Positions 13,007 to 14,865 of a stretch of DNA of 32,000 nucleotides are shown here, one piece after another (the first letter of the stretch is position 1; every line of letters starts with the position of its first letter). Both the position numbers and the translations under genes were made by a program. Source of the DNA: Candidatus Heimdallarchaeota archaeon (GTDB lineage Archaea > Asgardarchaeota > Heimdallarchaeia > Heimdallarchaeales > Kariarchaeaceae). The stretch is from positions 300,001-332,000 of the forward strand of contig JASBSB010000007.1 in NCBI GenBank assembly GCA_030149205.1. The letters run 5' to 3'. The notes under the pieces were generated by a model. It was not told the origin of the DNA. It searched no databases and was given only the letters and a program-made list of their open reading frames with translations.

Positions 13007-13636
13007 TTATCCATTGGTAAACTCTTTTTCTAACTCGCCAAAATTTAAAGTTTTGACTTTGTTTAAGCCCCAATCTTTAATGCGACCAATTTGATGATCG
13101 GGTGTTCCATGTCTACCAAAAAAACTTGAATAGTGTTGTGCAATATCGGTTCTCCAGGTCTCTTTGAGAGAGACTAATCGCATATCCAACAAATTAACCA
13201 TTGTTGGATTTATTTGGTTGGTTCTCTTATCTTTCCAGTTTATTGGTAAGACCTGTATCAACCCTAAATCCACATAAGCACCATCCGACCAAAGACCATC
13301 CTTTTCTGGCAAGAAGTACAATTTTCTGTATTTATTTTTAATCAAATCCATTAGCTTATTCTTCACCTGATTGTCACGGTCCGAACCCGTAATACTTTTC
13401 ATGGCCGCATAGATAAAATACCTAACTGGTCTGACCGCCGCAAAATTAAACCAGTCCAACTTTGAATCTGAATGTTCCAAATCACATTCCGCATTAATAA
13501 CCATCCAGCCAACAATAGAATTTTTGATACTCAGCTTAGTTCGAATGAGTTCTGACTTTATGATGTCCCCCTGTCTCACTCTTTCAGTTAACATATTCTC
13601 GTTTTTTTCGTAGATGTCCTGAAACAGACTTTCCAT
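13007..13636 (-). CDS. Hypothetical protein, possible divergent PemK/MazF-fold toxin
   Basis: QGDI...MVINAECD...FAAV...YFLP...AYVDLGLIQVL...RLVSL...IAQHYSSFFGRHG follows by eye the element order of MazF/NdoA (RGDV, VLVIQND, VAAIT, VILLEQIRTI, KITHL). The ORF itself is well supported; the confidence score refers to the fold call. Confidence 0.45.
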   Translation of the reverse strand: MESLFQDIYEKNENMLTERVRQGDIIKSELIRTKLSIKNSIVGWMVINAECDLEHSDSKLDWFNFAAVRPVRYFIYAAMKSITGSDRDNQVKNKLMDLIKNKYRKLYFLPEKDGLWSDGAYVDLGLIQVLPINWKDKRTNQINPTMVNLLDMRLVSLKETWRTDIAQHYSSFFGRHGTPDHQIGRIKDWGLNKVKTLNFGELEKEFTNG

Positions 13637-13668
13637 ATTTGGTTCAGAACTAATGCTTAAACAACCCC

Positions 13669-14118
13669 CTATTCTTCCTCATCATCTAGGTCTGGAATTG
13701 TAGGCAGTTGATCCCAGCCCCATCTATCTCCTGAGGGGGTAAACTCCTCCCCATCAAAGCTCCAAAACTCTTCCTCCGTCATCGGTGGAGCTTCTTCTCC
13801 TTCTGGATATATCTTTTCAACTATCTCTTCCCTAATGACTTCCCCTGAGCTAACCTTTGACCAAGGTGTATCTTGGAGATTTACCAGTCTCCATCTCCCA
13901 AAGTTTTCAAGATATGTGGCCCCAATTTGGAAACTTAAAGATGACATTGAATCTATAACTTTCTTTACAATCGAAGCAAAGGAATCAATACCTAAGTACT
14001 CATTTGACCAATCAGAAGTAAAAGGCTCTTTAAGTTTAAGTTCATTTAAACTTGTTGCTGTTTCATCCTCTTCTCTTATTATTATAAAATCTGTCTTCAT
14101 CCTTTCTGCCAATGCCAT
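13669..14118 (-). CDS. Acidic hypothetical protein (candidate antitoxin)
   Basis: 149 aa with a strongly acidic, Pro/Trp-rich C-terminal tail (EEEFWSFDGEEF...DLDDEEE); starts 3 nt after the upstream stop. Confidence 0.6.
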   Translation of the reverse strand: MALAERMKTDFIIIREEDETATSLNELKLKEPFTSDWSNEYLGIDSFASIVKKVIDSMSSLSFQIGATYLENFGRWRLVNLQDTPWSKVSSGEVIREEIVEKIYPEGEEAPPMTEEEFWSFDGEEFTPSGDRWGWDQLPTIPDLDDEEE

Positions 14119-14121
14119 AGA

Positions 14122-14865
14122 TCATCTATCCCCTTTCATAACTTCCTCAACAAAACTCTCTTTTATCAGTGAGGAGAACTTTTCTTTGATTGTTGAATGT
14201 AAGTGTGATGTCAGATTTAAACATTCTGACAATGTCAAGTCTCCAGAAGAATTATCTCTGAAGGCATCAAAATCCATAAGTATAGATAATTCCCTTGAAG
14301 CTGTCTCCACGATCCCATAGTTTGTTGATAAGGAAATATTATTTATATATCGCTCTTGAACCTTCAAAGAACATTCATTTATCTCAGAGAAACCCTTGAA
14401 AATCGTATTCAAAGGGGTCACAAAGTAGTTATCATAGTTCTGAAGATTGTTCTCCGGGATTTTGCACAGATTAACATAGCGCAGACCTAATCGTGTGATA
14501 GGAAGCTTTTCAGCTCCGTCAAAGAAGAGTTGAAAGTTTTTTACCTGACCTTGAATCTCTTCAAACAATTCCGTAAAATTGGTGTACTTTTTGTTTAATA
14601 GAGCAAATCGATCTGAACCAATTCTGATGGAAATATCTCCAGACTCAGTGCGAAACTCATAAAATTGACCAACAAACCTGGGTGTTCCCGGCTGGGGAAG
14701 ACGAAACTGCTCCTCATTGATCACATTTACCACGGGGTACCTGTCTTGAACCAATTCCTGAAACTTATCCAAAATCCTGAGAATCTTTAACTGGACTGGG
14801 AACCGAATCTCCCAAGTGACTTCAAATAAAGGTGAATTTGGATACTGATCTGCCAATACGACCAT
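14122..14865 (-). CDS. TIGR04255-family protein
   Basis: N-terminal YPNSPLFEVTWEIRFP, Y.NF..L, ITRLGLRYVN and C-terminal LMDFDAF...LHSTIKEKFSSLI match my recollection of the family signature. Confidence 0.8.
   Translation of the reverse strand: MVVLADQYPNSPLFEVTWEIRFPVQLKILRILDKFQELVQDRYPVVNVINEEQFRLPQPGTPRFVGQFYEFRTESGDISIRIGSDRFALLNKKYTNFTELFEEIQGQVKNFQLFFDGAEKLPITRLGLRYVNLCKIPENNLQNYDNYFVTPLNTIFKGFSEINECSLKVQERYINNISLSTNYGIVETASRELSILMDFDAFRDNSSGDLTLSECLNLTSHLHSTIKEKFSSLIKESFVEEVMKGDR

Follow-up and report, generated by a model that had tools for sequence, protein, structure and literature searches.

A candidate three-gene toxin-antitoxin-like cassette with a TIGR04255 protein in a Heimdallarchaeota genome

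The DNA analysed here, hereafter the window, is a 32,000-nucleotide stretch of the genome of Candidatus Heimdallarchaeota archaeon (assembly GCA_030149205.1, contig JASBSB010000007.1, positions 300,001 to 332,000). It contains three adjacent minus-strand genes that encode a protein of the TIGR04255 family (gene 1), a small acidic protein (gene 2) and a protein of an unnamed family (gene 3). We read them with moderate confidence as one copy of a mobile, widespread and seemingly unpublished three-gene toxin-antitoxin-like cassette, in which TIGR04255 and the small acidic protein accompany a probable toxin of MazF/CcdB-type fold and which would work by the mechanism set out below. A candidate tripartite toxin-antitoxin system had been proposed at this place in an original prediction made from the DNA letters. 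That proposal is supported here: the two computable attempts at its refutation, on the fold of gene 3 and on the co-occurrence of the three genes, left it standing, and what we infer is the toxicity, its target, both protein contacts, the role of TIGR04255 and the trigger. The cassette is much more than a chance arrangement, since dozens of unrelated genomes show this gene order as well.

Recurrence of the TIGR04255 cassette

The three genes are co-oriented and separated by spacers of 3 nt and 32 nt, and the tightly coupled operon described originally was confirmed in both its open reading frames (ORFs) and its gaps (Table 1). Gene 1 was recognised by the NCBIfam model TIGR04255 with 96.5 bits (E 2.1e-27; cut-off 30) over positions 1-250 of the 252-position model, which agrees with the family name it had been given before. 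It is the single TIGR04255 copy in the host genome according to a genome search, and it has no Pfam match and, in a profile search, no sequence relative in the PDB. Gene 1 and 23 TIGR04255 homologues matched no Pfam family, the chaperone family SecB (PF02556) included. In the alignment of the 23 homologues P44 and F230 are the sole invariant positions, neither of them polar, a pattern more in keeping with binding than with catalysis. A search of 8.4 million papers returned none that mentions TIGR04255, CHP04255 or IPR026349. Class 8 hicBA modules have been described as carrying long multi-domain HicB proteins, in an account that does not name the TIGR04255 family (Gerdes 2024; PMC10865869).

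Co-occurrence of the three genes elsewhere, a point on which the original prediction depended, was found from both ends of the cassette. Starting from gene 3, 400 genomes of the host's phylum gave 27 informative loci with a member of its family, and in 16 of these the gene 3 relative is preceded, in the same orientation, by a TIGR04255-like gene and a small gene for an acidic protein (pI 4.5-6.1); most neighbouring genes overlap or are less than 30 nt apart. All contigs retrieved for gene 3 relatives and holding enough upstream DNA show the same order of a long gene, a short gene and the gene 3 relative (gene lengths of representative loci are given in Table 1); the contig of locus L003 begins at the gene 3 relative and so has no upstream genes to count. 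From the other end, TIGR04255 was searched for in 301 genomes, and in 20/20 loci with enough downstream sequence it is followed by a small gene and then a third gene, at spacers of -20 to +26 nt in most of them. The third gene belongs to the gene 3 family in 14 of these 20 loci, a count that takes in two long divergent forms recognised by the motifs QGD, QDC[DE]I and YLPE, for which hhalign support is weak in L092 (probability 57%) and only 10% in L094. Judged from their spacing, the genes of these triads may well be co-transcribed.

The other six of the 20 loci carry third genes of different types. One encodes a GNAT acetyltransferase with a Pfam match, two encode HEPN-like proteins recognised by motif and lacking a Pfam match, and three encode members of a 150-aa family without assigned function that have a common F[FI][FY]RR[IV]HKN-type start (Table 1). 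Both GNAT and HEPN domains occur in known toxins of toxin-antitoxin systems. The third-gene types are mixed across a maximum-likelihood tree of 23 TIGR04255 proteins: L024, which carries a gene 3 relative, is sister to L088, which carries a HEPN-like gene (support 100/99), and L018, again with a gene 3 relative, falls within the clade of L082, L086 and L087 with the 150-aa family (support 98/96). Yet another type of third gene was found in a TIGR04255 triad of 256, 288 and 218 aa on the Rhizobium sp. CB3060 conjugative plasmid NZ_CP104160.1 (L103, 315527-322904), where the triad adjoins a multiubiquitin/ThiF/DUF6527 set and an IS110 transposase. Because the third-gene types are interspersed on its tree and the Rhizobium triad differs again, TIGR04255 is the constant partner of varying third genes.

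The gene 3 family, its predicted fold and the middle proteins

Gene 3 matched no Pfam, NCBIfam or PADLOC model, and a word-based search returned the query itself only. When 1.84 billion representatives were searched exhaustively with phmmer, 18 relatives at 27-39% identity came up, and a profile search found 54 relatives in archaea and bacteria, among them proteins of about 290 aa from Ralstonia holmesii, Sphingobium and a Gemmatimonadota bacterium as well as a protein from a metagenome-assembled genome of the Thermoplasmata. By these similarities gene 3 belongs to a genuine family, as yet unnamed, with at least 54 members. The 55 aligned members share no consistent Pfam family and match neither PemK nor any PADLOC model. 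For the three proteins of the cassette, a search of PADLOC gave nothing at E 0.001 or better, the sole match below E 1 being a weak one of gene 3 to AbiEi (E 0.014), and a search of PHROGs gave only a weak match of gene 3 to phrog_4575 (E 1.4e-3), whose function is not assigned. Neither a tblastn search of 72,556 plasmids nor a profile search of PDB sequences yielded a match.

With the 55-sequence alignment as input, AlphaFold2 modelled gene 3 at a predicted local distance difference test score (pLDDT) of 89.2 and a predicted template modelling score (pTM) of 0.78; a single-sequence run reached pLDDT 35 and was unusable. The 50 best Foldseek matches of this model in the PDB are all MazF-type or CcdB toxins, plus one CptN toxin at rank 37. 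Phage PemK proteins ranked on top in a viral structure library, and the ESM Atlas returned a PemK cluster together with three unnamed bacterial clusters at template modelling (TM) scores of 0.59-0.64. As a prediction it is well supported that gene 3 has the CcdB/MazF superfamily barrel, and the MazF-like fold that had been suspected from the sequence is borne out by the model. The predicted strands lie at residues 25-27, 43-46, 62-70, 106-109, 120-131 and 153-155, and the blocks of the earlier by-eye alignment to NdoA/MazF coincide with all of them except 106-109. The helical insertion that had been noticed in the same alignment corresponds to a predicted two-helix insert at residues 71-99 (helices 71-81 and 87-99) after strand 3, and helices at 183-207 make up a C-terminal addition of two extra helices.

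Conservation in the family centres on a small set of residues. In the 55-sequence alignment Q22, G23 and C51 are conserved at 100%, D24 at 98%, I25 at 96%, D52 at 88% (otherwise mostly E), R175 at 81%, R69 at 79%, P70 at 76% and D180 at 69%. The gene 3 of the window is full length and keeps every one of these residues. The catalytic residues of MazF are an Arg in the loop between strands 1 and 2 and a Thr or Ser at the end of strand 3 (R25 and T48 in Bacillus subtilis MazF, R29 and T52 in Escherichia coli MazF); at the end of strand 3 the gene 3 family has R69 in place of the MazF Thr, in a strand register set by eye. A papain-like Gln/Cys/His centre built on the invariant Q and C was considered and dropped because no His is conserved in the family. 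The domain is also found inside long proteins of 359-369 aa (L024:1447-2526, L031:844-1953 and L034:853-1962), and an ESM Atlas cluster of 376-aa proteins, automatically named 'response regulator', has the same shape; the long proteins may be a toxin fused to another domain.

Gene 2 returned only itself in a word-based search of 5.8 billion proteins. Its last 44 residues contain 17 D/E, 6 aromatic residues and 5 prolines, so the very acidic C-terminus seen at first reading was confirmed. Other cassettes have an equally fast-evolving small acidic gene in the gene 2 position. These middle proteins could not be aligned over their full length; what they have in common is position, size and acidity. 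Of the middle proteins paired with the gene 3 family, 25/31 carry a net charge of -2 or lower over their last six residues, against 1/7 of those paired with other third genes (Fisher p 0.002, a value overstated because related loci are not independent). The acidic tip therefore tracks the gene 3 family. An aromatic residue often precedes the acidic ones, as in YFDEEI, WLDDME, WLEEEGNEEE, FNWDEL and PEEWED; the corresponding tip of gene 2 in the window is DLDDEEE. A middle protein that joins a tail fitted to the toxin type to a body accompanying TIGR04255 has the design to be expected of a two-part adaptor or antitoxin. A complex prediction with two copies of gene 3 and one of gene 2 scored 0.00 with gene 2 poorly folded, and speaks neither for nor against binding.

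We read the cassette as horizontally mobile. The gene 3 family occurs in 27/400 genomes of the host's phylum, in 0/11 genomes of the host's own family and in 0/3 of its genus, and the 10-kb surroundings of the cassette have no DNA match within the same genus. Several copies in the phylum are shortened or interrupted by stop codons; decayed copies are common for toxin modules. Related cassettes adjoin MNT/HEPN and AbiEii genes, and others adjoin a PAAR/Tox-REase-5/Imm52 set (type VI secretion system toxin-immunity), an SLFN/AlbA gene or a phage portal gene.

Weighing the toxin-antitoxin reading

Several observations weigh against a three-gene toxin-antitoxin cassette with a MazF-type toxin. Eleven of the 27 loci of the gene 3 family have no recognisable TIGR04255, which may therefore be dispensable for the core pair, and L033, L035 and L036 carry just a small gene upstream of the gene 3 relative. 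The acidic tail is not a universal rule: a long branch of the family (about 280-290 aa), to which most exceptions belong, pairs with neutral or basic middle proteins, such partners being found in the Ralstonia-type loci, L091 and L094. Gene 3 has no sequence link to the PemK/MazF family PF02452, with no Pfam match and a probability of 0.5% in hhalign against 20 Asgard PemK proteins; at the level of sequence it is outside the PemK/MazF family in the Pfam sense, and it is the predicted fold that makes it a putative homologue of MazF. No Arg is conserved at residues 26-45, the strand 1-2 loop where the catalytic Arg of MazF is situated, and the invariant Cys of the family has no MazF equivalent. 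Because the loop Arg is not conserved and R69, in the by-eye register, stands at the Thr position, the chemistry of gene 3, if any, would have to differ from that of MazF. RNase activity is thus a guess, and likeness of a modelled fold shows no function.

The variable presence of TIGR04255 suits a two-gene MazEF-like pair made of genes 2 and 3, with TIGR04255 as a fellow traveller, for example a transcription regulator or an independent defence gene. The lone small genes of L033, L035 and L036 still have an acidic and aromatic tip, and the first genes of L004, L005, L009-L014, L025 and L032 are unrecognised by TIGR04255 models; for L004, L005, L009/L012, L025 and L032 the hhalign comparison with TIGR04255 was not significant, and they are accordingly not callable as members. 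In addition, none of the cassette genes encodes a recognisable DNA-binding domain, which leaves the cassette in need of a regulator. Against such a pair stand the 20 TIGR04255 loci, every one of which continues with a small gene and a third gene, closely spaced in most, and the fact that TIGR04255 keeps its position while the third gene changes type, which is the pattern of a shared functional component and not of a passenger. We consider the two-gene pair unlikely, though more probable than the other alternatives.

It is less probable still that gene 3 is not toxic at all, its MazF-like barrel having been turned to a harmless enzymatic or binding role, with the Cys-Asp pair as a new active or metal site, and the three genes serving another cellular function. 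In favour of this are the apparent absence of the MazF catalytic residues, the family's own invariant Q-G-D and C-D motifs and the missing sequence homology to PemK; a likeness of fold also says nothing of function. On the other hand, related TIGR04255 genes carry GNAT or HEPN-like third genes (the latter by motif only), both known toxin types, and the sporadic, mobile distribution with several decayed copies and with defence or mobile neighbours is typical of toxin modules. A toxin that acts like CcdB on topoisomerase or another protein target rather than by cutting RNA is the least probable alternative, since the QGD and C-D motifs have no equivalent in CcdB, the matches of the gene 3 model include type III RNase toxins, and members of the family occur in Asgard archaea, in Thermoplasmata and in several bacterial phyla, a breadth that favours a universal target such as RNA.

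In the three-gene toxin-antitoxin-like cassette that we favour, gene 3 would be a growth-arresting effector on a MazF/CcdB barrel, with RNA as its likeliest target. Its site would have been rebuilt from the QGDI motif, which precedes strand 1, from C51-D52, which follows strand 2, from R69-P70, where strand 3 ends, and from R175. Gene 2 would lay its acidic, aromatic C-terminal tail on gene 3 and so keep the toxin inactive, as MazE, Kis and CcdA do. TIGR04255, independent of the toxin type, would hold or guard the rest of gene 2, much like the third component of toxin-antitoxin-chaperone (TAC) systems and CmdTAC. The toxin would then be freed by some trigger, for example infection by a virus or the loss of the cassette, possibly as abortive infection.

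A wider interpretation is possible, and we put it forward tentatively: TIGR04255 might be central to an extensive and so far unpublished class of three-part systems, toxin-antitoxin or abortive-infection, in Bacteria and in Archaea including Asgard archaea. There it would be a guard or sensor, indifferent to the toxin type, in control of a two-part adaptor, and the MazF-fold branch would have a new Cys-Asp/QGD catalytic centre. What the present proposal adds to the known tripartite toxin-antitoxin systems is a third component that has not been studied before and a branch of the MazF fold that had gone unrecognised. If it is correct, TIGR04255, so far a numbered name only, becomes the constant part of a modular three-component toxin system that extends from Asgard archaea to Proteobacteria, and a sizeable new branch of the MazF/CcdB fold with conserved residues of its own becomes a candidate toxin. 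In three-part toxin systems such as CmdTAC it is the third component that detects phage infection, and another, unrelated family of such components would be a new entry point to how three-part toxin systems are triggered. The cassette would further lengthen the still short list of candidate defence modules from the archaea related to eukaryotes, and bacterial homologues, for example in Ralstonia, bring the idea within reach of ordinary laboratory hosts.

Surroundings of the locus and comparison with known systems

The host genome (3.3 Mb in 12 contigs, 93.5% complete) encodes a full-length actin (445 bits), as befits an Asgard archaeon of the Heimdall group. The only dataset found to hold the locus is its source sediment metagenome, and no RNA dataset is listed. 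Together with a 168-aa ORF that sits 198 nt upstream of gene 1, the three genes form a minus-strand block of four genes between plus-strand genes that reach up to 12873 and resume from 15799. The antiparallel insertion of the cassette, as originally described, holds relative to these flanking genes but not to the 168-aa ORF on the same strand. This ORF has no Pfam match and is not seen upstream of other cassettes; by that absence it is probably outside the module. The 161-aa antisense ORF over genes 1 and 2 almost certainly only shadows the genuine genes of the minus strand.

A 17-bp direct repeat brackets the 2.8-kb minus-strand block, the 168-aa ORF included. Its two copies are 16/17 identical and are the only two in the genome at up to 1 mismatch. 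The repeat may be an insertion scar or an att-like site; no integrase was found near the block that it bounds. Within the 198-nt spacer, 63-117 nt upstream of gene 1, lies an array of a 9-bp unit, which gave five overlapping 18-mer matches against 0.01 expected and is unique in the 3.3 Mb genome. A promoter or operator element, a run of TATA-like boxes and a plain microsatellite are all conceivable, and because 27 other cassettes have no comparable array upstream, a regulatory role is only a guess.

Further along the window lies an SNF2-family helicase, for which a search of five genomes from the host's genus or family gave no match at E 1e-30 or better. The region 20630-23992, which contains an N6/N4 DNA methylase and a gene resembling Mrr_cat restriction nucleases, is probably a foreign restriction-modification-like islet. 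A DinB-like gene also lies near the cassette. The most AT-rich part of the window is a stretch of about 1.4 kb at 26865-28231, with a GC content of about 20-26% and no ORF of 120 aa or more.

Table 1. Features of the window, and related loci with their gene lengths or third genes. Positions preceded by a locus name refer to that locus.
Feature	Position	Strand	Remarks
Gene 1, TIGR04255 protein	14122-14865	minus	247 aa; NCBIfam match; first in cassette; candidate helper, adaptor or sensor
Gene 2, small acidic protein	13669-14118	minus	149 aa; pI 4.12; candidate antitoxin or adaptor
Gene 3, unnamed family, predicted MazF/CcdB/Kid-type fold	13007-13636	minus	209 aa; candidate toxin
Antisense ORF over genes 1 and 2	13835-14320	plus	161 aa; without support
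Signal-peptide/transmembrane ORF	15064-15570	minus	168 aa; N-terminal signal peptide, C-terminal transmembrane helix
17-bp direct repeat, left copy AAAAGTTCTCTGTGTGA	12978-12994	plus	12 nt past gene 3 stop codon
17-bp direct repeat, right copy AAAAGTTCTGTGTGTGA	15786-15802	plus	just upstream of plus-strand LRR gene
9-bp unit TAGATAAAA (gene strand)	14928-14982		6.1 tandem copies; Tandem Repeats Finder score 96
SNF2-family helicase	17135-19747	plus	870 aa; two N-terminal SAP domains, a eukaryote-like DNA-binding motif
N6/N4 DNA methylase	20630-21550		followed by low-GC stretch (26-32% GC)
Mrr_cat restriction-nuclease-like gene	22163-22582		in the low-GC stretch, with three ORFs without Pfam matches
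MoxR-like AAA ATPase with VWA/CoxE partner gene	24581-26865
NACHT/STAND-type NTPase	30843-32000		extends past window end
Related cassette L004			222 / 151 / 200 aa
Related cassette L005			137 / 90 / 181 aa
Related cassette L006			241 / 134 / 173 aa; first gene TIGR04255, 124 bits
Related cassette L008			228 / 142 / 194 aa; first gene TIGR04255, 78 bits
Related cassettes L009-L014			215 / 80-81 / 289 aa
Third gene, GNAT acetyltransferase	L083:1938-2408		Pfam match
Third genes, HEPN-like	L075:2675-3049; L088:534-926		motif only
Third genes, 150-aa family	L082:1849-2301; L086:414-869; L087:2868-3323		common start motif

Among known systems, the type III toxins ToxN, AbiQ and CptN are neutralised by a repeat RNA encoded upstream and not by a protein. 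The 9-bp array differs from ToxI-type repeats in that it lies upstream of gene 1 rather than of the toxin candidate and in that its units are far shorter.

The GajC protein of type II Gabija has a MazF-like domain split by a five-helix insert and works with the UvrD-type helicase GajB (PMC13069673). Compared by description, gene 3 resembles GajC as a MazF-like barrel broken by an alpha-helical insertion and as a candidate effector outside classical MazEF. The insert of gene 3 has two helices, and the cassette has no helicase partner. Membership in type II Gabija was rejected for the lack of a helicase in the cassette, the nearest being the SNF2/SAP protein 2.3 kb away on the other strand.

MazEF, Kid-Kis (PemIK) and CcdAB share the predicted toxin fold and the proposed logic of an antitoxin tail with the cassette, and the acidic tail of gene 2 recalls the tails of MazE, Kis and CcdA. 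In contrast to these pairs, gene 3 has no similarity to PF02452 and has about 90 extra residues, made up of the two-helix insert and the two C-terminal helices. Its family has its own invariant QGD and Cys-Asp, and the loop Arg of MazF is not conserved in it. The candidate antitoxin gene 2 has no recognisable DNA-binding domain, and the cassette has a conserved third gene, TIGR04255.

It is in this third gene that the cassette approaches the TAC systems, represented by HigB1-HigA1-SecB(TA) of Mycobacterium tuberculosis (PMC9098466) and by CmdTAC (PMC11618068). The third protein differs, as TIGR04255 has no sequence match to SecB or any Pfam family. The order also differs, being helper, antitoxin, toxin in the cassette and toxin, antitoxin, chaperone in TAC, and the toxin candidate has a predicted MazF fold whereas TAC toxins are of the RelE/HigB or ADP-ribosyltransferase type. 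What the two would have in common is a three-gene logic of toxin, antitoxin and a dedicated third protein, which serves different toxin types and is kept while the toxins are exchanged.

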